A stretch of DNA of 45,821 bases, from the IMG/VR virus record IMGVR_UViG_2695420343_000003. One strand, given 5' to 3'. Below, piece after piece: positions 2,603 to 21,950 of this stretch. The translations under genes and the position numbers were made by a program. Positions within the stretch are counted from its first letter, which is position 1; each line of letters starts with the position of its first letter. This stretch comes from a virus. Lineage: Duplodnaviria; Heunggongvirae; Uroviricota; Caudoviricetes. Below the pieces are notes generated by a model. The model did no database searches. It was not told the origin of the DNA and worked only from the letters and a program-made list of their open reading frames with translations.

Positions 2603-3655
2603 TCAGGAGCCGATATATTCTGGTTTCATATCTGTCAGTGTCGTTTTATACGCCTCATATAATTCTCCCAGATGTGGTCGTGCAGCATTCAGCGTATTTT
2701 CCAGAGCAATAAATTTTTGTTCTGCTTCTGGATCACCTGATGAAGGCAGGTCATTTATCATCGTCTCAATACGGGCAATAGCATTGAGACGGTGATGACG
2801 CTGAACCACTTTTCCTTTAAGTTCTGTGTAGAGAGCGCCAAGTGTATTTTTATGATCTTCCACTTCCTGGCGAAGTGATGTTGTTTCTCCGGTGCTTTGT
2901 GCCTGCTCAATACGTTCACGGAAAGCACTGATCCAGTTTTCCCCGGCATCCTGCTCAATAATTGTTGTTTCACGTTCCGCACGGCAGGCGGATGTATTTT
3001 TATGTTCCTGAACCGGATTAATGATTTTTTCCTGTGGTTCGTCCAGTTCGTCCCGGGTGTACACTCCAAGAATCACTTCAGGGCAATAAAGGCGCGCCCA
3101 GCGTTTCAGTGCCAGATAGGCAAGCTGCTGGCGAGGATCATCGGCCCATAACGTTGAGTTACGTGTTCTGGCCTGCGCCAGAAGTAACTCCAGTACGCGT
3201 GGCTTGCTCTCTCCGCGTAGTGTTGCCTGGACGCGAACTCCGATCCCGTTTTCATCGGCCAGCTTCCAGCCAGGTACACGATATTCTTTCCCCTTGTCGT
3301 TCTTCCTGATTTCAAATTTCCCGATAATTTTTTCCCACGGCCCGAACCAGTCATATTCAATACGCCCGGTTAACGGCCCACGAGTACTGATTACGGCATT
3401 AACCAGTTGCGCTTCATATCCGAGCACACCATTCACAACGAAAGTTTTCTGAGCTACTGCGTAAGGGTTCATTTGCCACTGCATCGCCTGCATGGTGATG
3501 GCCATGCAGTCTGATGGATTTCCCCGGAGGTGTTCCGGTACAGTAGCCATGCCGGAAGCCATTACCTGGGAAAATGTCTGAATTGCAGCCAGGGACTGAG
3601 GGCTGAAAACCGCAACATTAGAGTTAATATTTTCTTGTTGAGTTAATTCGTTCAT
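2603..3655 (-). CDS. Putative single-strand annealing recombinase (RecT-like partner of RecE)
   Basis: 350-aa ORF in the position of recT, directly upstream of recE on the same strand; call is from synteny, sequence differs from K-12 RecT. Confidence 0.5.
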   Translation of the reverse strand: MNELTQQENINSNVAVFSPQSLAAIQTFSQVMASGMATVPEHLRGNPSDCMAITMQAMQWQMNPYAVAQKTFVVNGVLGYEAQLVNAVISTRGPLTGRIEYDWFGPWEKIIGKFEIRKNDKGKEYRVPGWKLADENGIGVRVQATLRGESKPRVLELLLAQARTRNSTLWADDPRQQLAYLALKRWARLYCPEVILGVYTRDELDEPQEKIINPVQEHKNTSACRAERETTIIEQDAGENWISAFRERIEQAQSTGETTSLRQEVEDHKNTLGALYTELKGKVVQRHHRLNAIARIETMINDLPSSGDPEAEQKFIALENTLNAARPHLGELYEAYKTTLTDMKPEYIGS

Positions 3656-3666
3656 TGTGTCCTTCC

Positions 3667-6600
3667 TCAGATGCTCAGTGCTTCAAGACGACGAAGATCA
3701 AAGTCGTTTAATTCGTCGGTATAACTTTCGGTAATCGGTGCTGGCCAGTTGTTTGTCTCCAGAGCTTCGTTTATCTGTCGTAGTGTCCGGCGATATTCCT
3801 GTCGACCAAGTTCCAGGAGTTCCTGCGAGGCTTCCACGACGGCCACCCAGTGATAGCCAGCATCTTTGTTGACGAAGATCCAGAAAAATTTGTCCAGGTT
3901 TGCCACATCGCAATACATTGCTGCGCTGAGGTGATAATCACGTTCAATAATTTCACGGTGCAGGCGATCTTTCAGTCGTTCCTGTCGCACATAACCGAGG
4001 CTGACTGACTTCACGTCGGCGCAAATGCTTTCGTATGGCAGCCGGATTTCGATATCAGGACGGACCCTGATTTCCAGCCCGGTTTCTTCATCAAACCCGA
4101 AATAGCTGATTTCAGATTTGCGATCCGGGTGGTTGAGTAGCCTTGCTGCATCAGTATTGTTTTGCAGTGCTGCGTGAATATTTTTTGCCTGTTCATACAT
4201 ATCCGGACTGATAAACGTTTTTCCGGCGTTTTCTTCTTGCTGGCGTTTTTGCCAGTCCTCCAGTGTTACCAGTTCCGGGCGAATTTTCCGGGCGATTTCG
4301 GTTAATTGCTCTTTTGTGCCACTGATGTTGTAAGGCAAAGATTTAGCACGTTCTTTTTTTGCCAGTTCTGGATCTACAGTTTCAATTTGCTCCAGGAGCT
4401 GCTCTCGTGTTCCACTGGCTTTCAGCAGAGGAGGGAGGCTTGCGTTGTATTCTTTAATACAGGCTTTCATTGCTGATGCTGTGTGTTTTTCCCCCTCAGG
4501 AATACGCCGGAATTCCTCCGGAAGCGAACCGTAAAGGATGCCTGTTTCTTCGGCCCCGGCACTTACCGACAGTGGCTGTATAAGAGTGCTGTTGTAGCTT
4601 TCGATCCACTCTTTCATCTGCTCTGGTGTCATCAGTGCTGGCAGACTGGCATTGTGTTTTTTAATGATGGCGATCAGTTCGTTAGAAGTAGTAACCACAT
4701 ATTCAGGAACCGGTACCGGAATGGCATACTCATCAGCGAATTTATCCGTTTCCAGAACATAGCTGTGAATAATCCGCCCACGCAGCAATGCATCACTTTC
4801 CTCGCCCGGAATAGTTCCGGCAATGTGCCGTCCGTGGTAATACATCAGGCTGATGCGGGCATCCTTCAGCATTGTGCTGCTTATTCCGTTGGCGGAGTGA
4901 TAAACCTCGTTCGGGAGGTTTTCATAGCGGCCAGGCTCGAAATATGACGGCCACATGATTTCAGTTACTACAGGTGCTGTCGTTTCACCAGCTTCATCAC
5001 TGCAATCGCAATGCGGATTGCTGCCAGCGTTCTCCTTGTGCGGATGTTCAGCACCTTCCATTTCCTCCAGACCTTTTTCCTGATATTCATTCTGATTTTC
5101 TTCATTAAAGGTTTTCTGATACGTTGCGTCGCCCATCACCGCGCCACAGTCAGGACAGTTGCCGCCGCCAGCCTTACCGCAGGCGGTGCAAACTTTCTCC
5201 GTTTCCTGTTGTTGCACTACTGGCTCAGGCTGTTTCGTTTCTGGCTCGTTTTGTTGCGTATTTGGGTCGTTCTGTTCCGTTTCTGGCTGATTCTGGTACA
5301 CAGAATCGCGGGTCTGGATCCCCTTAACCCATTTCGGATCATTCGGGTCGCTAATCCCTTCAACAAATTCTCCGCGAGAGGCAGCCAGTAATTTGTCTGC
5401 ATCGACAGGATTTTTGGGCGGAATGTTTTTCCGGGCTTCATAGAGTTCTGCCCGCAGTTTCTGATATTTCGCATCAACAGAATTTACCTGTGACTGAGCA
5501 TCCAGCGGCTGCGTGTCCTGATGATGTTCAGTTGCATCCGGTTCCACTGTTTCAGCCGTTGCCTGTTCATCTGCCATTGCGCAAGATGGTTGCAGTTTTT
5601 CTTCATCATCCTGTTTTTCTTCTTCTGTTACACGCTGCGGCATCGGGGCAGAGGAACGACCGCAGGCAATATCCACGATTTCTGGATCAGGGTTGGCATG
5701 ATCAGTTTCAGTCAGTACTTTGTTAAGATATTCAGTGACGTGTGCGGGGATAACCTCGATCCCAATTGGTGCTTCTTTTACGGACGCAACCACGATGGCG
5801 CGGGAATAATCCAGCCCGCCAGGCATGGTGATGAATTTGTCGCGGAAAACAGAAAAGGGCGGTTTATTTTCAGCGATAATTTCCTCGACACGTTTAGCGT
5901 GTGCCGGATGAAGGTTATAAATGTCCACGTCCATTGAACGAGCCAGTACGCCAGTGGCTACGTCGCGCGCCAGTGACGTCAGATCGTGAACGAAACCTTC
6001 GCCGCGATCGGTGAGGTTCCCGCCGCCAGCATTAGCGCCGGAAGCCGTGCGCGTGATGCGTGAAACACGATTTCCTTTCATCCACTCTTTTGTCAGCAGA
6101 CCGCGATCGGTGTAGTCTGCGTCCAGGTATGCTTCGAAAAAAGCAGTCATCAGCCCCAGGCTTGAATTGCCTGGATTAGGGAAAACTCTGTCAGTATCAC
6201 GCACCAGTTTATGGAGATCGCGAATTTCCAGCGGGTCGAGCAGGCTGGTTTTGTGGGAAACAGCCAGGGCAGTAACAGCTGGTAGTTCTTCAGCCCGTGC
6301 AATGTGTAATGCCTGGAGTCCGTCGCGTGAAACGTGCGTTACCGGTTTTTCGCTGCCGTGTTGAGCAGGCCAGCGAATGGGCAGCTCCTGACCGGAAATC
6401 GGGAGTAGCATATTCTCCTCAATCTCCGTCATGTCTTCGCCATTAACATTGGTATTGTCAGTGCTGGCTGGTTTGTCCTGCGCAGAGGATGAGGGCGCGA
6501 TAAATACCATTGTGATGCCATCTTCCCCGCCTTTTTCGTAACGGTTGCAGAATTCCGTATCAAATACGCCCTCTGGTGGAAGGTCATCAACAACGGGCAA

Positions 6601-13805: not shown

Positions 13806-14846
13806 CTAGGAGGCTTTGATTATATTAAGCAAATGTTTTCCAATCGTTTCAGACATCTTCGGAGGGACCGCATTTCCTATTTGACGAGCCCGAGATTGCA
13901 AAGAACCAATAAATTTATAATCCAAAGGAAATGTTTGTAGACACGCTGCTTCACGAACCGATATTGCTCGATTTTGTGTTGGATGTCCAAAACGTCCATT
14001 TGAATAGCTAATACAACGAGTTGTTAGTCCGCTGGCTGGTTTGTCCCAACTCAAACGTCCATATACGTCTGTATGCCCTTTATGGTTACGATGGCATTCT
14101 AAAATCAATTCATCTGGCCAAAATTCTCGACTTCCACCTTCAGGAGTGCATTTTATTCTACGTAAATTAAGCTCTGATAAGCGTGCAGCTTCATGATCAG
14201 GAATACTATTATGCTTTTCTCCTGCTTCTATCTTCGGTAAATTAGCGATCCAGTCCTTTACTGTTGAATAGGGAGTATTTCCAACCCCATGTGTAGGAGA
14301 AGGCAATGCGACATAAAAATCCTTGGATGCAATGAGCACTAATCTTTCTCGCGTCTGTGGTACACCGTACCACGCAGCTGGCATTACTTTATAATCTACA
14401 CTATATCCCTTTGATGAAAGCATTTCTAAAAACATCATGAATGTTCCTTCATTTTTGTTAAACTTTTGCATTCCTGGCACGTTTTCAACAAAAATAAAAT
14501 CAGGCATATAATGCTCTACAAAACGACTGAATTCCTTTAATAGATCTAATCGTGGATCATCATTTTTTTTATTTGAGTTTTGCTTAGAGTACGGTTGACA
14601 AGGCGCACATCCTGAAAAAAGAATGTAATCATTACGATGTTTTTTTACTAACTTGTTTATGGCATTGTTGTCGATTAACCTAATGTCCGAGTTAATAAAA
14701 GCAGCTTGCGGGAAATTTGCACGAAATGAACTGGCTGCATCAACGTCGAAATCGAGGCCAAAAACAATATCCATTCCAGCTTGATGGAAACCTTGGCTGG
14801 TTCCACCACAACCGGAAAAGAAGTCAAACACTTTGATTTTTTTCAT
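13806..14846 (-). CDS. DNA (cytosine-5)-methyltransferase (Dcm-like)
   Basis: C5-MTase motifs: I FDFFSGCGG, IV GCAPCQPYS (catalytic Cys), VI FVENVPGM, VIII QTRERLVLIA, X GNAVPP; AT-rich; 23 bp downstream of the ATPase gene on the same strand. Confidence 0.9.
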   Translation of the reverse strand: MKKIKVFDFFSGCGGTSQGFHQAGMDIVFGLDFDVDAASSFRANFPQAAFINSDIRLIDNNAINKLVKKHRNDYILFSGCAPCQPYSKQNSNKKNDDPRLDLLKEFSRFVEHYMPDFIFVENVPGMQKFNKNEGTFMMFLEMLSSKGYSVDYKVMPAAWYGVPQTRERLVLIASKDFYVALPSPTHGVGNTPYSTVKDWIANLPKIEAGEKHNSIPDHEAARLSELNLRRIKCTPEGGSREFWPDELILECHRNHKGHTDVYGRLSWDKPASGLTTRCISYSNGRFGHPTQNRAISVREAACLQTFPLDYKFIGSLQSRARQIGNAVPPKMSETIGKHLLNIIKAS

Positions 14847-14869
14847 TTTTCCCTCTGCATCCAGAATCA

Positions 14870-16699
14870 CTATCTAATGATACCACGGTCAAGAGCCTGA
14901 GTAATTATTTTTCTTATTTTTATAAATTCAGGCAATTCATTTTTAAGTCTTGCGGTCATCATTTGTTGGAGGCAAAAAATTTCCTCTGCATTTACTTCTT
15001 CTTTATCATACAGGTGTTGCGCTAATAATCTTATTTGATTCTTATACAGCTCTGGATCATTAGAACTCCAGGTCTGTGAATCAATTATTTCTTTTTCACT
15101 TGGCGTAATTGCCTTTTCAATGAGTAATTGTTCGGGAGTATCAAATGGTAAATACTGCACTTTATTGAATGCATACTCAAGCACTTGCCTTTTGAGTCTA
15201 TTAGATTCTTGTTCATTTTTTTTGCCATTACTACCACTGGCATTGATAATTAACTCGCAACCATAATATTTGCACATTGTATTAACTAAATCAGCATCAG
15301 CAATTTCACTAATTCTTACTGGTTTTATTTTTTTGTTTTTATCACCATCAAGTAAAAACAAAATATCATTGCGTTCTACCACAGCGTAACTGGGAAGATG
15401 CTTGCTTAAAATTGTCTCCGAACCACCTGGTATATAACTTACACTAAATGATAAACTTAATCTTTCATAATTTTTAATCGCTTTATCTATAATTGCTTTA
15501 GCTAATTTATCTTCTACAATTATTGTTTTCTTGTTAATATCATGCCCTAGCTCTATAAAAGCTTCATCCGGTGCTATATTTTGAACTATTTTAGCTGTTT
15601 CACTCTCTTCATCAAAAACAAATAATTTAATAGCATCTTTGGGAAGAGTGTTCACAATAACAGGAGAATGGGTTGATATTACCACTTGATGTTTTTTCTG
15701 CTCAACAATAGAGTACAGAACATCCATCATCCTTTTCTGTGCACCAGGGTGAAGTGAAACTTCTGGTTCGTCAAGAAGAATTAATGAATTAGGTTTGGCC
15801 GAATAAATATTGAGTATTAGTGAAACTATTGCAAATTCACCACTTCCAGCAAAAGCTTCTGTATAGTTCAACTTATCAGTTGAAAGTAAAGCGGTTCCTC
15901 CTCTGGTTCCAAATAACCGATGCTCAAGAAATTTAATGACTTTATATTTTTTTCCTAATATAAATGAGACGTGCTCAACTAGTTCTGGCGCCAAGGTTAT
16001 ATTTTTAACAATGGTTTCCGTCCCCCAAAGTCTTAAATTATTTAGCTTTTCATCAAAAGCTTTCTTTATATATTTAGATTTGCTTCTGATATAGTCTTGC
16101 TTTGTAATTAATACACCACTCTTCTTCTTTCTTAATTTAAAATCAGAGTGATACATACATCTATCAAATGCACTTATTTCCGATCTGAAATCTAGGAAAA
16201 CCAATCCCTTCTTGATTTTTTTCCATCTGGTTGCATTACTATTAGCACCCAGATCATCCGAAATACTCTCCATGTTATCACCAACAGATGGTCGACTTGT
16301 TTCCCAATAATCGATTGTTTTCTTGGTAGCATTGATACGCGCTTGGAGTATTTCAACTAAACGGCCATCAGCATTTTTATATCCATATATATATCTAGGC
16401 TTAAGAGAACTGCCATCAGCAAGTTTTAGGTCAGGAAACTCATCTGTTTCAGTTGTGAACCAATAACGAGTTATATTTTTACCATGTGGGCAACCAAATA
16501 GCGCTTTGATAACAGAACTTTTATTAGTTCCATTTTTTCCTACTAAAGCCGTTATAGGGAACTGAAAATCGATCCTTGCATTCTGCTCTATATTTTTAAA
16601 GTATGGAAAACGGATATGTTGTATGAATGGTTCAAATTCACCGTTTTTTAACGCGCACTGGAGTGTTCGAATTTTGCTCTTGTATGCGGAAGTGCTCAT
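14870..16699 (-). CDS. OLD-family ATP-dependent nuclease (ABC-type ATPase + Toprim-like domain)
   Basis: Walker A LVGKNGTNKSS, signature-like AGSGEF, Walker B LILLDEPEVSLHP, H-loop ISTHSP; C-terminal Toprim-like motifs TIIVEDK and FLLDGDKN; very AT-rich. Confidence 0.8.
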   Translation of the reverse strand: MSTSAYKSKIRTLQCALKNGEFEPFIQHIRFPYFKNIEQNARIDFQFPITALVGKNGTNKSSVIKALFGCPHGKNITRYWFTTETDEFPDLKLADGSSLKPRYIYGYKNADGRLVEILQARINATKKTIDYWETSRPSVGDNMESISDDLGANSNATRWKKIKKGLVFLDFRSEISAFDRCMYHSDFKLRKKKSGVLITKQDYIRSKSKYIKKAFDEKLNNLRLWGTETIVKNITLAPELVEHVSFILGKKYKVIKFLEHRLFGTRGGTALLSTDKLNYTEAFAGSGEFAIVSLILNIYSAKPNSLILLDEPEVSLHPGAQKRMMDVLYSIVEQKKHQVVISTHSPVIVNTLPKDAIKLFVFDEESETAKIVQNIAPDEAFIELGHDINKKTIIVEDKLAKAIIDKAIKNYERLSLSFSVSYIPGGSETILSKHLPSYAVVERNDILFLLDGDKNKKIKPVRISEIADADLVNTMCKYYGCELIINASGSNGKKNEQESNRLKRQVLEYAFNKVQYLPFDTPEQLLIEKAITPSEKEIIDSQTWSSNDPELYKNQIRLLAQHLYDKEEVNAEEIFCLQQMMTARLKNELPEFIKIRKIITQALDRGIIR

Positions 16700-16847
16700 T
16701 GTTTACTAAAGTCCATAATAGGCTATTAACAGGTTGAGGATGACATGATAGCGATTTTTAATGCAGATAAAAGAGGTTTGTTGGTTAGCACACAACAGAA
16801 AAAGTGACCTTACCGCTTGAACGAAAGGTAAGGGTAAGTAGGCTGTG

Positions 16848-17000
16848 ATGCAGCAAAAGGCGATGTTAATCGCCCTGATCGTCATCTGTTTAACCGTCGT
16901 TGTGACGGCACTGGTAACGAGGAAAGACATCTGCGAGGTACGAATCCGAACCGGCCAGACGGAGGTCGCTGTCTTCACAGCTTACGAACCTGAGGAGTAA
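16848..17000 (+). CDS. hok: Hok/Gef-family type I toxin (50 aa)
   Basis: Hand-translated: MQQKAMLIALIVICLTVVVTALVTRKDICEVRIRTGQTEVAVFTAYEPEE, near-identical to recalled HokD/RelF; short upstream ORF ends TGATG-coupled to the start (mok-like). Confidence 0.8.
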   Translation: MQQKAMLIALIVICLTVVVTALVTRKDICEVRIRTGQTEVAVFTAYEPEE

Positions 17001-17558: not shown

Positions 17559-18158
17559 ATGGCGCATATACAACTGGTCAAACAAACCTCTTCCGGATTA
17601 CTTCTCCCGGCGACGCCGGAGAGTTGCGATTTTTTGCATCAAATCAAAATAGGTGAGTGGATACACGCAGACTTTAAGCGTGTGCGTAACTACGCATTCC
17701 ATAAGCGTTTTTTCAAACTTCTGCAACTCGGATTCGATTACTGGACTCCGGTCGGTGGGGCGATCACTCCTCGCGAGCTAAAACTGGTGTCCGGTTTCGT
17801 TGATTATCTGTGCGAATCAGTAGGCCGGGAACATACGCCAGCTCTGAGCGAAGCCGCAGAGCAATATCTGAATACAGTTGCGACACACAGAACCCGAGAT
17901 ACAGCATTGCTAAAGTCGTTTGAGGCTTTCCGCGAGTGGGTAACCATTCAGGCCGGATTTTACACCGAGCATATTTATCCGGACGGTAGCCGTGGGCGCA
18001 GGGCGAAATCCATCTCGTTTGCGAATATGGACGAAACCGAGTTTCAGCAGGTTTATAAATCTGTACTGAATGTGCTGTGGAACTGGATCCTGTTCCGTAA
18101 ATTTTCCTCTCCGGAGGAAGTCGAAAATGTGGCTGCGCGGTTACTGGAGTTTGCGTAA
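17559..18158 (+). CDS. Nin-region phage protein (DUF1367-like), hypothetical
   Basis: 199 aa; GGAGAA RBS; located just upstream of a YbcO-like gene. Confidence 0.5.
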   Translation: MAHIQLVKQTSSGLLLPATPESCDFLHQIKIGEWIHADFKRVRNYAFHKRFFKLLQLGFDYWTPVGGAITPRELKLVSGFVDYLCESVGREHTPALSEAAEQYLNTVATHRTRDTALLKSFEAFREWVTIQAGFYTEHIYPDGSRGRRAKSISFANMDETEFQQVYKSVLNVLWNWILFRKFSSPEEVENVAARLLEFA

Positions 18159-18448
18159 TGGTGGATTTACGTAAAGCGGCGCAGGGGCAGATGTGCACCG
18201 TCAGAATTCCTGGCTACTGCAATCACAATCCCGAAACATCTGTGCTGGCGCATTACAGGCTGGCGGGGACGTGCGGAACAGCGACAAAACCACACGATAT
18301 GCAGGCAGCGATTGCCTGCAGCTCATGCCACGATTTAATCGACGGGCGGGTAAAAACCAGCGATTACACCAAAGAAGAATTACGCCTGATGCATGCAGAA
18401 GGTGTTTTTCGCACACAAGAAATCTGGAGAAAGGAAGGTTATTTATGA
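18158..18448 (+). CDS. YbcO-like putative nuclease (DUF1364)
   Basis: 96 aa; MVDLRKAAQGQMCTVRIPGYCNHNPETSVLAHYRLAGTCGTATKPHD…ACSSCHD resembles recalled DLP12 YbcO. Confidence 0.7.
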   Translation: MVDLRKAAQGQMCTVRIPGYCNHNPETSVLAHYRLAGTCGTATKPHDMQAAIACSSCHDLIDGRVKTSDYTKEELRLMHAEGVFRTQEIWRKEGYL

Positions 18449-18987
18449 TTTACCCAACAAATACAGGCAAAAGCGGGGAACACCTTCGTCTCACCACGCT
18501 GGAAAGTGTCTGGATTCAGGGAAAACTGCGCATGTGGGGGCGCTGGTCGTATATTGGCGGCGGTAAGACGGGAAATATGTTTAACCAGTTGCTGGCATCC
18601 AAAAAATTGACGAAAACAGCCGTCAACGAAGCCCTGCGCAGGATGAAAAAAGCAGGTCTGGACAAACCTGAACTTGAGGCTTTTTTGCGGGATATGATCA
18701 ACGGCAAGCAAAAAAGCTGGCTGGTGCATTGTACTGATGCAGAGGCGTTATGTATTGATAGAGTCATAAGTGAGGTGCTGGCAGAGCATCCTGGATTGAT
18801 TAGTGTCCTCCGGCAACGGTATGAAGGGCGGGGGATGACTAAGCGCAAAATGGCTGAATTGCTAAATGATGTACATCCTGAGTGGTGTTTTAGCACATGC
18901 GAAAAGCGAATTGCTAATTGGTTGGCTGTTGCTGAGTATGCCCTATATATTCCCATGCGAGAATCATTTGCTCAAAAAATAGCTTGA
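18445..18987 (+). CDS. Putative late-gene antiterminator (Q-like)
   Basis: 180 aa, last gene before the lysis region; TTATGA overlap with the YbcO-like gene; call is positional, not motif-based. Confidence 0.4.
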   Translation: MIYPTNTGKSGEHLRLTTLESVWIQGKLRMWGRWSYIGGGKTGNMFNQLLASKKLTKTAVNEALRRMKKAGLDKPELEAFLRDMINGKQKSWLVHCTDAEALCIDRVISEVLAEHPGLISVLRQRYEGRGMTKRKMAELLNDVHPEWCFSTCEKRIANWLAVAEYALYIPMRESFAQKIA

Positions 18988-19061
18988 TTTTTTACGCATA
19001 AACTGCTTCAATTCCGGTATGCTTCGCAAAGCTGTATCGCGAGGCGAACCAAGCGCATGAA

Positions 19062-19085
19062 CTTTACCAGAACCCGCCATTGAGC
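19062..19085 (+). terminator. Candidate tR'-like terminator downstream of the Q-like gene
   Basis: cccgccattgagcggg hairpin followed by ttttgttgttt; ~75 bp after the Q-like stop; candidate promoter -35 TTGATT 18976..18981, -10 TTCAAT 18999..19004. Confidence 0.4.
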
Positions 19086-19112
19086 GGGTTTTGTTGTTTC
19101 TGGAGAACACCC

Positions 19113-19343
19113 ATGAAATTTTATGAATTATCTTCTGATTCCCGATCTCAGGCCAGAATCACACTGGGTCAGTTCATTGTGGCTCGGGCTAACGCGGGGG
19201 TGGATGATTTTGAAAATTTGGGGCATTGCATCGCTGCCGCGTTTATTGCGATGGAGCGCTATGAAAGCGCCCCTGAGGTTGGTGAGGGGCGTAGCGGGAA
19301 CGGAATACCCGTTAATGGCGATCAAAACTCACTTCTTGATTAA
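19113..19343 (+). CDS. Hypothetical small protein (77 aa)
   Basis: ATG with GGAG ~8 nt upstream; convergent with and overlapping the 3' end of the 19329..19607 gene. Confidence 0.3.
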   Translation: MKFYELSSDSRSQARITLGQFIVARANAGVDDFENLGHCIAAAFIAMERYESAPEVGEGRSGNGIPVNGDQNSLLD

Positions 19344-19607
19344 ATGCCATGAGCGATCTGCTGCTTGAGTGACTAGCACCCGAGGGTTCTTTTTTATTGT
19401 CCCAGCGATGGCTACAACTTCTTCTCGGACTGCGCGAGCAGATGCGTTTTTTTCGGCTGTGTACTCAGCGTCTGGAAGATAAAACCAGTTTCCTGCTCCA
19501 TCTTGAATTTCGCGAAAGTATCTTCGGGATTCCATCGCCTCATGAAGGCGATTGTAGTCATCGGATGATGCACCCACAAGCTCAACGCGGACAGTAAAAC
19601 TAGCCAT
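19329..19607 (-). CDS. Hypothetical protein (92 aa), reverse-oriented moron between Q and holin
   Basis: ATG at 19607 with strong AAGGAG RBS; MASFTVRVELVGASSDDYNRLHEAMESRRYF…. Confidence 0.5.
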   Translation of the reverse strand: MASFTVRVELVGASSDDYNRLHEAMESRRYFREIQDGAGNWFYLPDAEYTAEKNASARAVREEVVAIAGTIKKNPRVLVTQAADRSWHLIKK

Positions 19608-19701
19608 ATATACTCCTTTAATTGATATGGTTACTTTTGGCGATTTAACGATATCAAACACGAGGATATACCGCCAGAAGCTTAATCTGGCACTCCAGCT
19701 G

Positions 19702-19726
19702 GCCCCGGCATGTCCCGGGGCTTTTT
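19702..19726 (+). terminator. GC-rich hairpin terminator upstream of holin
   Basis: gccccggcatgtcccggggc + TTTTT. Confidence 0.5.
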
Positions 19727-19824
19727 CGTTGTCAGGCTCCGGAAACATCCTCGACTTCTTGTGAGCAAGCCTGAGAGCCTGAATCTTACATTTAGCACCA
19801 TCCGAACTCTCGGAGGTGAGGCTT

Positions 19825-20166
19825 ATGAAAATGCACAATGCCCCTCATTCCTGGCCTGACTTACTGGAACTCTTACAAAGTTGGTGGCGTGGAGATACGC
19901 CGCTGGGCGCAGTGATCATGTCAATTATTATGGCTGGTTTGCGCATTGCCTATTTTGGCGGTGGCGGCGGCTGGAAACGAAAAACGCTTGAGATTTTGCT
20001 CTGTGGTGCCCTGACGCTGACCTTTGCATCCGCGCTTGAGTATGTCGGATGGCCTAAATCACTTTCTGTTGCCATTGGTGGTGGGGTGGGGCTGATTGGT
20101 GTTGATGCTATTCGTGGTGCGGCAATGAGGGTCATCGGTAACAAGTTCGGTGCCCATAAGGAGTAA
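19825..20166 (+). CDS. Class I holin with lambda S-like dual start (MKM)
   Basis: GGAGG RBS 8 nt before ATG AAA ATG; three predicted TM segments; charged C-terminus; immediately upstream of endolysin. Confidence 0.65.
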   Translation: MKMHNAPHSWPDLLELLQSWWRGDTPLGAVIMSIIMAGLRIAYFGGGGGWKRKTLEILLCGALTLTFASALEYVGWPKSLSVAIGGGVGLIGVDAIRGAAMRVIGNKFGAHKE

Positions 20167-20169
20167 TTA

Positions 20170-20646
20170 ATGCAGACACTTAATTCCCAGCGTAAAGCTT
20201 TCCTTGATATGGTGGCATGGTCAGAAGGAACAGATAACGGACGGCAGAAAACCAGAAATCACGGTTATGATGTTATTGTCGGTGGCGAACTGTTCACTGA
20301 TTACTCCGATCACCCCCGCAAACTTGTCACGCTAAATCCGAAACTCAAATCAACAGCCGCCGGACGTTACCAGCTTCTTTCTCGCTGGTGGGATGCCTAC
20401 CGCAAGCAACTTGGCCTGAAAGATTTTTCCCCAGAAAGTCAGGATGCTGTAGCGCTGCAGCAGATTAAAGAGCGTGGCGCTTTACCGATGATTGACCGCG
20501 GCGATATTCGTCAGGCAATCAACCGTTGTAGCAATATCTGGGCGTCGTTACCTGGTGCAGGTTACGGTCAGTATGAACATAGAATCGGTGACCTGATTTC
20601 CCGATTTAAAGAAGCTGGTGGGGTGGTAAATGAAGCTGAGATATAA
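20170..20646 (+). CDS. R: Endolysin, lambda R-like lytic transglycosylase
   Basis: 158 aa, near-identical to recalled lambda R (…QRKAFLDMVAWSEGTDNGRQKTRNHGYDVIVGGELFTDYSDHPRKLVTLNPKLKST…). Confidence 0.9.
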   Translation: MQTLNSQRKAFLDMVAWSEGTDNGRQKTRNHGYDVIVGGELFTDYSDHPRKLVTLNPKLKSTAAGRYQLLSRWWDAYRKQLGLKDFSPESQDAVALQQIKERGALPMIDRGDIRQAINRCSNIWASLPGAGYGQYEHRIGDLISRFKEAGGVVNEAEI

Positions 20647-21022
20647 GCTGGTTATTGTTGCCTTCTTTGTTACCGTCATCGGTTCTTTTATCTGGTCTGC
20701 CGGGCATTACTACAGCAAATATCAACACGAAAAGGAGCGTGCTGATGAGGCTGTACGAAATGCTGAATCTGCAACAGCTATTACCAGTAACGTCCTGCAA
20801 TCACTGCAAATCATCAATACAGTTATAGAGGCTAACCAGCATGCAAAACAGCAGATCGCACTGGAGTCACAGAGAACCCAGGAAGATATCAAAGTGGCTG
20901 TTGCGGATGATGATTGCGCTGTTCGTATCGTTCCTTCTGGCGCAGTTAAGCGGTTGCACGAATACGCGAACGGTATACGTGTCGGTGCCGGTCGTTCCGT
21001 TACCAGCCAGTCTGACGGATGA
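20630..21022 (+). CDS. Rz-like i-spanin
   Basis: N-terminal TM segment (LVIVAFFVTVIGSFIWSA) then coiled-coil periplasmic domain; follows endolysin. Confidence 0.65.
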   Translation: MKLRYKLVIVAFFVTVIGSFIWSAGHYYSKYQHEKERADEAVRNAESATAITSNVLQSLQIINTVIEANQHAKQQIALESQRTQEDIKVAVADDDCAVRIVPSGAVKRLHEYANGIRVGAGRSVTSQSDG

Positions 21023-21488: not shown

Positions 21489-21950
21489 CTATCCGTGGAA
21501 AATATTTGCATCCAAATCATCTATGAGATTAGACCTAACTGATTCATAATTTTTCCCATATGCGGCCCCTTTACCTGAATGGGTTACATGCCCAATAGGA
21601 CCGTACAGAAGTATAGAGATTGTGAATGATATTTCATCAGAAATGCCGCCTATCTTTTGAAACCAAAGTTCCGGGTTACGATTCCGGTCGGTTACAACGT
21701 CAAATACAAGCGCGATAAGATCTGGGAGATAGTTCATGTTAAATCCGCCATTTGGGGTCAACTCGAGATTCAACAGGGCTTTGATGGAGGGATAATTGCT
21801 TACATCATCCTGAATGCCATTCTTAAGAGTTGTAAACACAAAGTTCAGCATTTCAGCAACTTTATCTTTGTTTGGTTCTACTCCATTTCTGAAGGACCGC
21901 TCTCCAGATTCATATTTTTCAACACAAAAATCTAATAAATTCATTATCAT
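21489..21950 (-). CDS. Hypothetical protein (153 aa), AT-rich reverse-oriented moron
   Basis: Minus-strand ORF between lysis cassette and terS; AT-rich; hairpin gaagctcctttgataaggagcttc at ~21360..21385 downstream. Confidence 0.5.
   Translation of the reverse strand: MIMNLLDFCVEKYESGERSFRNGVEPNKDKVAEMLNFVFTTLKNGIQDDVSNYPSIKALLNLELTPNGGFNMNYLPDLIALVFDVVTDRNRNPELWFQKIGGISDEISFTISILLYGPIGHVTHSGKGAAYGKNYESVRSNLIDDLDANIFHG

Follow-up and report, generated by a model that had tools for sequence, protein, structure and literature searches.

The 45,821-nucleotide (nt) stretch of DNA analysed here (IMG/VR record IMGVR_UViG_2695420343_000003), hereafter the window, is, judged from its sequence, a lambdoid prophage of the Escherichia coli type. 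Our subject is the 837-nt interval between the stop codon of its Q gene, which encodes a predicted late antiterminator, and its holin gene. We put the chances at roughly even that this interval joins the control head of the late operon to an exchangeable accessory pair of convergent genes which would work as a switch between the lysogenic and the lytic state. The two open reading frames (ORFs) of the pair, one of 76 amino acids on the plus (late) strand at 19113-19343 and one of 92 amino acids on the minus strand at 19329-19607, overlap by 15 nt at their 3' ends. The cargo of the slot is thus an uncharacterised but widespread convergent pair around a protein of predicted GhoS/Cas2 fold, held between conserved "socket" signals.

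In lambdoid phages, the interval from Q to the holin gene S holds the late promoter PR', the qut site and the terminator tR', and it is the site where Stx toxin genes, tRNAs and other morons are inserted, for example in 933W-type phages. The original prediction, made from the sequence without database searches, had described the interval in the window as a classic moron or toxin site with two small convergent genes and two terminators. Our comparisons confirm that this observation is real and that the moron-slot reading is right, the locus being of an ordinary kind. What the prediction did not contain is the GhoS/Cas2 fold of the 92-residue protein, the recurrence of the convergent pair as a module, and the finding that the sequence on the promoter side of the minus-strand gene is part of the conserved prophage backbone.

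The convergent pair is a recurrent prophage module

A census was made of 92 loci with a homologue of the 92-residue gene (termed GhoS-like hereafter), in which a partner was defined as a convergent ORF of at least 40 amino acids that overlaps or abuts the 3' end of the GhoS-like gene. Such a partner is present in 76 of the 92 loci, with a stop overlap of typically 4-24 nt, and at least five partner families can be distinguished by clustering: A (that of the window), B, C (YmfJ-like), D and E. All of these partners are small and most are acidic, with median isoelectric points (pI) of 4.5-5.1 in families A-D and of 6.5 in the two-member family E. Three genomic sites harbour such pairs: the Q-holin interval, the head of the early-left operon, next to the repressor, and the gap that separates the lysis genes from the terminase genes. 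Family A is known from two of these sites, and so is family C. The genes around them run mostly the other way, 73% of the flanking coding bases being on the strand opposite the GhoS-like gene. In Kluyvera, where Q (PF06323) and holin are of other kinds, both families of the window converge in the interval between these two genes, while Serratia and a metagenomic prophage have a GhoS-like gene near the repressor with other small convergent partners. The ymfI/ymfJ genes of e14 in E. coli K-12 also have the pair arrangement.

A search that started from partner family A found a GhoS-like gene adjacent in 20 of 23 loci. We treat the two genes as linked, and not as chance neighbours, chiefly because of a comparison among cargo genes that stand behind the same conserved leaders (types 1 and 3, described below). 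Behind these leaders, 15 of the 23 distinct combinations with a GhoS-like gene have a partner of families A-E, as against none of the 62 combinations with other cargo (Fisher 2.7e-11, a p-value that is only indicative and overstates independence because the counted loci are related prophages). A convergent ORF of any sort follows in 23/23 distinct GhoS-like combinations as against 34/62 combinations with other cargo.

Two further settings were seen among the related loci used for comparison, which carry L numbers (L001, L002, L003, L068 and so on). In L007-L009, which are metagenomic contigs outside prophages, the GhoS-like gene is co-directional with genes for 70-amino-acid and 212-amino-acid proteins and lies beside an Eco57I-type restriction-modification gene, unlike the convergent prophage pairs. 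In L130, a tRNA (3261-3329) and a BstA-like gene with a BstA_C domain (3617-4540) adjoin the GhoS-like pair.

Fold and family of the 92-residue protein

The minus-strand ORF (19329-19607) is antisense to the late operon and is preceded by the sequence AAGGAG (19618-19613), 5 nt before its ATG (19607-19605). A convergent ORF of this size with a strong ribosome-binding site (RBS) is what the original prediction had described. The product matches phrog_8894 and, over its full length, the NCBIfam family YmfI_phage (NF051477) with 59.1 bits (4.5e-16), below the curated cutoff of 140 bits; by these matches it is a relative of the YmfI family and no equivalog. Homologues down to 37% identity have the pattern MASFTVRVEL..DY..LH..M..G..LP.AEY..VLVTE..R in common, and a full HMMER scan places 2,389 clusters in the family at E ≤ 1e-3.

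The AlphaFold model of the protein has a predicted local distance difference test score (pLDDT) of 95 and the order strand-helix-strand-strand-strand-helix-strand. In fold searches, GhoS (PDB 2LLZ) was the best match by two methods and Cas2 came next; in Foldseek, 2LLZ ranked first and was the sole match at E ≤ 1e-3. Sequence identity to GhoS is 11-14%. The model predicts a ferredoxin-like fold of the GhoS/Cas2 type, and the protein most likely binds or cuts RNA. The wider family points in the same direction, since the Pfam family GhoS (PF11080) is matched by 11 of 19 close relatives and 19 of 112 distant representatives (E ≤ 1e-3), which match no other family. Two relatives, P0007 with 22.1 bits and P0019 with 22.9 bits, pass its gathering score of 21 bits, and some relatives are named GhoS or DUF2622 by NCBI.

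Other searches with this protein gave no match. Profiles of the family compared with PDB sequences produced only noise (E ≥ 0.07), and Pfam gave no Cas2 match. No cas genes were present among the ORFs examined around the pair, the whole window not having been scanned for cas genes or CRISPR arrays. PADLOC 2.0 returned no match at E ≤ 0.1 for the 92-residue protein, the 76-residue protein or four partner proteins of other loci, and a literature search on DUF2622/PF11080 and on the leader sequences yielded nothing relevant.

The acidic partner

The plus-strand ORF (19113-19343) is the first ORF of the late transcript and starts 7 nt after a GGAG sequence. It had been predicted with 77 amino acids; the ORF is there, and its size is 76 amino acids plus the stop. 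The protein has a pI of 4.6 and belongs to partner family A. Its sole match is phrog_26625 (6.7e-48), and Pfam, NCBIfam and PADLOC gave none. Relatives at 22-51% identity share the pattern MKFxEL...AFIxxE followed by a variable acidic tail. The AlphaFold2 model consists of two helices with a pLDDT of 59, which is too poor for a fold search. Differences between homologous ORFs are in excess at the third codon position (e.g., 9/8/19 and 21/19/37 at positions 1/2/3). A homology search of both small proteins, which the original prediction had proposed as a check, thus returned homologues at 22-85% identity whose differences are mostly at third codon positions.

The interval contains no sign of a toxin. 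No member of a toxin family was found, and there is no hydrophobic ORF of at least 18 amino acids on either strand of 18988-19825, where the maximal 18-residue hydropathy is 1.1. The word "toxin" in the title of the original prediction is therefore not borne out, while its statement that stx genes and tRNA-like sequences are absent agrees with our searches, which found no stx-like ORF in the Q-holin interval and no tRNA in the whole window.

The pair forms an exchangeable cassette

Comparison with related E. coli prophages delimits the segment that has been exchanged. Homology with L002 ends at 19103 and resumes at 19616, and on these limits we define the cassette as 19104-19615 (both strands); with L003, homology extends up to 19327, exactly where the two ORFs join, and is found again from 19619 on. 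The content of the Q-to-holin interval is thus swapped among relatives, as expected of the moron slot that had been proposed, and some relatives carry an extra ORF6N gene in the region. The cassette includes both ORFs and their RBSs and excludes about 100 nt upstream of the minus-strand gene as well as the second terminator. At least 80% of the segment 18900-19900 is present in 18 of 5,426 complete E. coli genomes, and parts of it are present in 1,724.

In base composition the cassette differs from what is expected of a moron, its GC content of 48.8%, against 48.6% for the window, being no anomaly. A moron is also expected to be flanked by a promoter and a terminator of its own; here the conserved leader, with a candidate promoter, and the terminator at 19701-19727 lie in the backbone outside the exchanged segment.

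The alternative cassette of L002 (2310-3063) and L003 (2393-3149) encodes a 189-amino-acid membrane protein on the late strand, which converges on a Pro/Gln-rich protein of about 50 amino acids. The latter is the commonest cargo of type-3 leaders.

Conserved leaders and a second terminator beside the cargo

Conservation is higher in the roughly 100 nt that precede GhoS-like genes than in the genes, and these upstream sequences fall into three leader types, exemplified by L037, L049, L053 and L130 (type 1), by L010 (5400-5500), L004 and L074 (type 2), and by the window at 19616-19700 (type 3). In the window, the type-3 leader of the minus-strand gene (19622-19657, minus strand) is an inverted repeat, TTGATATCGTTA / TAACCATATCAA, that encloses the core GTTAAATCGCCAAAAGTAAC (19649-19630). 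At least 80 viral contigs contain this 20-mer without a mismatch. By sequence comparison, the segment 19616-19730 is conserved backbone, made up of a cargo leader and a terminator, and it precedes at least seven small cargo genes that are unrelated to one another. The core is usually divergent from holin, and the late strand bears a hairpin with a T-run and a variable stem before it.

The alignment of type-3 leaders has 78.7% of its cells paired and one covarying pair (UA 9, CG 8). Because RNAalifold predicts no consensus structure for this leader and a single pair covaries, we claim no RNA element. In 12 related loci the leaders matched no Rfam family; the search there returned STnc100 (L054) and a tRNA (L130) only.

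A candidate promoter of the minus-strand gene was read from the sequence at 19665-19693 (minus strand; -35 GTGCCA, 17 nt, -10 TATATC). It overlaps the inverted repeat GCCAG...CTGGC (19691-19673), and (T/G)TGCCA with an inverted repeat recurs at the corresponding position in many type-3 loci. The type-1 leader has a -35 TTTCCA, 17 nt, a -10 TATGTT and the direct repeat TTCCACAGTCAA; the GhoS-like family supplies 17 of the 47 distinct cargo genes found behind it. Unrelated cargo of types 1 and 3 includes zinc ribbons, coiled coils and Pro/Gln-rich peptides. The second copy of TTCCACAGTCAA in the type-1 leader can pair so as to hide the RBS, and L048 has a compensatory UCUC/GAGA change.

The second intrinsic terminator, which the original prediction had recognised as a GC-rich hairpin at 19702-19726, was placed by the scan at 19701-19727. 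Its stem (19701-19722) has eight pairs, seven of them G-C, followed by TTTTT, and it should act on the plus strand only, the minus strand having no T-run after the hairpin. Other type-3 loci have a hairpin and T-run with unrelated stems at the same position.

The Q gene and its putative promoter-terminator unit

The gene at 18445-18987 (plus strand) encodes a protein of 180 amino acids which matches Pfam DUF1133 with 358 bits (6e-108), PHROG 753 "anti-termination protein Q-like" with 3e-79 and, marginally, Pfam Phage_antitermQ (27.6 bits; cutoff 26). Its product is predicted to be a Q-family antiterminator. In the literature consulted, DUF1133 proteins are called Q only by HHpred-type inference (PMC8136144).

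The segment 18400-20300 was scanned for terminators and promoter consensus sequences and searched against Rfam, the latter with no match at E ≤ 1. Six terminator-like sites were found, as compared with 2.2 ± 1.5 in shuffled sequences. The original prediction had expected a transcript start within 18970-19010, and a candidate PR' can be read from the sequence there (18984-19012, plus strand), though the consensus scan does not report it because its -10 lacks an A at position 2. It consists of a -35 TTGATT (18984-18989), which includes the TGA stop codon of Q, a 17-nt spacer and a -10 TTCAAT (19007-19012). The -10-like TATGCT that follows (19018-19023, plus strand) may be a sigma-dependent pause element; a similar TAGGCT also follows the -10 in L068. 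About 55 nt after the -10 begins the hairpin of an intrinsic terminator (19068-19099, plus strand), the putative tR', supported by scan and folding. A first terminator had been predicted at 19062-19085; it exists, and its coordinates were about 6-8 nt off, the stem of 10 pairs with a 6-nt loop being at 19068-19093 and the T-rich tail reaching to about 19099. The RNA 19019-19100 has a folding energy of -26.9 kcal/mol (z = -2.1).

This layout was compared in 23 distinct sequences that follow DUF1133-type Q genes (Q identity 58-100%). A promoter-like -35/-10 pair beginning on the Q stop codon is present in 19 of the 23, and a hairpin with T-run at a fixed distance past the Q stop is present in 22, with at least five unrelated stems. 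The predicted lambdoid PR'-tR' region is thereby upheld for its terminator, with PR' and qut as predictions from the sequence. The Q allele of L001 and L003 (86-87% identical) is followed by TTGACT/18/TATATT at the identical position and then by a different terminator, and in L068, whose Q is 58% identical, TTGAAA/18/TAAATT precedes a strong terminator.

The differences between the Q alleles of the window type and of L001/L003 are nearly confined to the last ~35 residues and track the type of the downstream unit; L002 has the Q C-terminus of the window together with the promoter-terminator unit of the window. Such a pattern is expected if Q proteins move together with their cognate sites, and simple linkage explains it equally well. 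Residues ~146-180 of Q (window 18880-18987) may mark the DNA-recognition part of DUF1133 Q proteins. In L001 (2985-3110) and L003 (1985-2110), an orphan second unit of the window type follows the extra ORF6N gene, downstream of a Q allele with its own, different unit. In L054 (3626-3800), the Rfam small RNA STnc100 lies between Q and the partner gene and is possibly the PR' leader RNA of that phage.

A proposed lysogen/lytic switch

From these elements we propose the following mechanism. In the lysogen, the backbone leader would drive expression of the 92-residue GhoS/Cas2-fold protein. The scan found no minus-strand terminator-like site between 19329 and 18988, the first ones lying inside Q (18670-18606); because none intervenes, the minus-strand transcript is expected to run antisense over the 76-residue ORF and PR'. 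Upon induction, Q-modified polymerase from PR' would pass tR' and make the 76-residue acidic protein as the first late product. That ORF would be translated only from transcripts that pass tR', because its RBS directly follows the tR' tail and leaves no room for a promoter of its own. Late transcription would then cross the 92-residue gene and its leader in antisense, pass the second terminator, and reach the holin and lysozyme genes. Past the ORF junction, the scan detected no plus-strand terminator before 19432-19447 and a strong GC-rich one at 19701. The two genes, with their 15-nt overlap, are thus convergent without a terminator between them, as in an excludon. Since opposite strands would be read in the lysogen and after induction, we propose that the two genes are in mutually exclusive states in an excludon-like manner.

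The acidic partner, being specifically linked to the GhoS-like gene, would most likely be a lytic-phase antagonist or target of its product, and what the lysogen gains is probably RNA-level control or exclusion. With the second terminator in place, lysis would depend strictly on Q, whichever cargo lies upstream. The e14 homologue offers a comparison: ymfI-ymfJ has been listed as a convergent excludon from RNA-seq (PMC12288877), and the SOS response brings a late increase in ymfJ RNA and protein, with hardly any change in ymfI (PMC11002266). By analogy, these data fit the proposed switch.

The minus-strand sites inside Q (window 18606-18670) are two terminator-like sequences (e.g., CAGGTTTGTCCAGACCTG then CTTTTTT). 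A minus-strand transcript that starts at the cargo leader could end there, in which case it would also cover the 3' half of Q in antisense.

Weighing the switch against other explanations

A number of observations weigh against the switch or against parts of it. The layout, exchangeability, fold and association of the pair follow from sequence and comparison, and the locus itself is known from sequence alone. On the side of the promoters, the only plus-strand match of the scan near the pair is TTGGCT/18/TATATT (18922-18951, plus strand; 9/12), a promoter-like site inside the 3' end of Q, and the scan reports no minus-strand promoter in 19608-19730. Both plus-strand sites (18984-19012 and 18922-18951) are candidates for the late promoter, the scan listing the latter instead of the stop-codon site. 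We favour the stop-codon site because its position is kept in the second Q allele, in 19/23 sequences and in L068. The 18922-18951 site lies outside the segment shared with the orphan unit of L001, where homology begins at 18974.

On the side of the protein, the Pfam GhoS family has no match at E ≤ 1 for the 92-residue protein of the window itself. Alignment by hhalign to a shallow E. coli GhoS alignment is weak, with a probability of 10.8%. The key catalytic residue of GhoS is Arg28 (PMC4010927). In the low-confidence hhalign alignment, R28 faces the invariant His22 of the family, a tentative placement. For these three reasons, we file the protein as a GhoS/Cas2-fold relative and not as GhoS.

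On the side of the pair, 16 of the 92 loci have no partner, and in one of these, L068, the GhoS-like gene stands directly after tR'. Remote homology among partner families A, B and C was considered and rejected (hhalign probability <1%), and GhoS-like proteins 70-71% identical to one another carry unrelated partners. Three of the 23 partner-A loci have no GhoS-like gene. The L003 recombination breakpoint lies exactly between the two genes, so the pair is separable. Lastly, the alternative cassette of L002/L003 is also a convergent overlapping pair, unrelated to that of the window, and the convergent layout is for this reason partly a property of the slot.

Much of this would be explained if two independent morons shared one slot, their convergent overlap being the outcome of tight packing and of fixed slot signals, with PR'/tR' on one side and the cargo leader on the other. 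We regard this as a real possibility, if less than probable. It accounts for one leader preceding at least seven unrelated cargo genes, for the equally convergent L002/L003 cassette, for the breakpoint between the genes and the three partner-A loci without a GhoS-like gene, and for mutually unrelated partner families that are swapped between close GhoS-like proteins. It does not account for the absence of families A-E beside other cargo (0/62, as compared with 15/23), for a pair arrangement kept at three genome sites, or for a convergent ORF in every GhoS-like combination (23/23) when other cargo has one in 34/62.

An improbable alternative is that the pair is a prophage defence system with self-immunity, in which the GhoS-like protein attacks the RNA of superinfecting phages and the acidic partner, as the first lytic product, switches it off. 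The predicted RNase-type fold suits such a role, as do partners that are diverse, small and acidic, as inhibitors often are. The GhoS-like gene occupies positions of lysogen-expressed exclusion genes, lies beside BstA in L130, and has other defence-like cargo for company in the window. The sieB gene of Rac sits antisense in the PL-proximal region, a position like that of the GhoS-like gene. Against defence speak the lack of a PADLOC match for either protein and the timing of the partner, whose gene belongs here to the late operon and would be expressed rather late for counteracting a defence.

Still less probable is a toxin-antitoxin system akin to type V, in which the 92-residue protein would act as an antitoxin RNase of the GhoS type and, until induction, destroy the mRNA that encodes a toxic 76-residue partner. 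GhoS is the closest solved structure, NCBI applies the names GhoS/DUF2622 to some relatives, and overlapping convergent transcripts would give the RNase access to the partner mRNA. However, there is no GhoT-like membrane peptide in the interval, where hydropathy stays at or below the maximum given above, and the partner is an acidic, soluble protein; the two genes converge instead of forming an operon; R28 seems not to be conserved; the unrelated partner families would each require a different RNA specificity; and some GhoS-like genes stand alone. That the ORFs are not genes at all, and the interval a regulatory leader (6S-like RNA, nut- or qut-type signals) in which reading frames arose by chance, is scarcely credible, for while small ORFs are common in intergenic leaders and neither ORF falls in a curated family above threshold, both have strong RBSs and full-length homologues down to 22-38% identity with third-position differences, the 92-residue model has a pLDDT of 95, and the e14 homologue YmfJ has been detected as a protein (PMC11002266).

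The switch described in the preceding section thus remains our preferred reading. A wider claim can be built on it, which we consider rather unlikely as a whole: that GhoS-like (YmfI-family) genes and their acidic convergent partners are a previously unrecognised class of two-gene prophage switch, in which an RNA-acting protein would be made from a standard "cargo socket", a conserved promoter-leader, in the lysogen and shut off at induction both transcriptionally and by its partner. More broadly, a few leader types may serve as universal sockets for swappable lysogen-expressed genes placed antisense in the lytic operons of enterobacterial prophages.

Neighbouring genes and other cargo in the window

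Upstream of Q are a DUF1367 gene (17559-18158) and a YbcO nuclease gene (18158-18448), both from the gene identity search. The first conserved late genes after the interval are the lysis genes (19825-21022), all on the plus strand. The holin gene (19825-20166) belongs to the lambda family, with an MKM dual-start motif and matches to TIGR01594 (4.6e-41) and Pfam Phage_holin_3_1 (2e-27). The lysozyme gene (20170-20646) is assigned to glycoside hydrolase family 24 (GH24) by the annotation of related loci, which also list lysis proteins among the genes after holin, and the Rz (Rz/Rz1) gene lies at 20630-21022.

Other accessory genes lie nearby. On the minus strand at 13806-16699, a gene for a C-5 cytosine DNA methyltransferase (354 amino acids) adjoins one for a 609-amino-acid AAA_15/AAA_21 ATPase, whose best PADLOC matches are HEC-04, ATPase-Toprim and AriA/PtuA-type proteins. 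The two form a defence-like pair, which lies in antisense orientation between the replication region and the nin region. A toxin gene of the Hok/Gef family (16845-17000, plus strand; 51 amino acids, Pfam HOK_GEF 1.5e-22) lies upstream of the DUF1367 gene, with the same annotation in related loci. An ORF of 153 amino acids (21489-21950, minus strand), with no Pfam or PADLOC match, is antisense between Rz and the small terminase gene; this slot is the third site where GhoS-like pairs sit in other phages (L051, L065).

Significance and comparison with known systems

The family of about 2,400 clusters related to GhoS, with its stereotyped antisense setting and a specific acidic partner, offers a concrete hypothesis for K-12 ymfI/ymfJ and their relatives, and the finding would gain weight if it is true that the pair is a functional switch. 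The DUF1133 proteins are paired here with a conserved unit made up of a promoter-like site on the stop codon and a terminator, which is directly usable for in-vitro antitermination assays. The conserved leaders mark lysogen-expressed accessory genes for systematic harvest, and such genes are candidates for roles in defence, exclusion and regulation.

The layout of the interval resembles the late control region of lambda (Q, PR', qut, 6S RNA and tR') in having, directly after a Q-family gene, a candidate promoter, a short leader and a terminator, with the lysis genes further downstream. It differs in that Q belongs to the DUF1133 family, the -35 overlaps the Q stop codon, and a second terminator precedes holin; in addition, the predicted leader RNA is ~80 nt, whereas that of lambda is 194 nt. 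With the Q-to-S morons of 933W-type phages (stx, tRNAs), it shares the slot and a content that is present, absent or replaced among close relatives, but the cargo in the window is a convergent pair without GC anomaly, and its antisense promoter side lies in the backbone.

Compared with GhoS of the type V GhoS/GhoT system (2LLZ, PF11080), the protein of the window is below the Pfam threshold and 11-14% identical; there is no ghoT-like membrane gene, and the partner is convergent, soluble and acidic. The GhoS-like protein differs from Cas2 in being encoded on its own within prophage operons. Excludons and phage antisense control by the lambda paQ and oop RNAs are alike in having convergent units without a terminator between them and predicted overlapping transcripts, although in the window both strands are protein-coding. 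A further counterpart is ymfI-ymfJ of e14, where a YmfI-like gene is likewise antisense to the lytic operon and a small partner overlaps its 3' end, the N-terminus of YmfJ being partner family C. The e14 pair, however, adjoins the repressor, where the early-left operon begins, instead of occupying the Q-holin interval, and has another partner family and another leader type.

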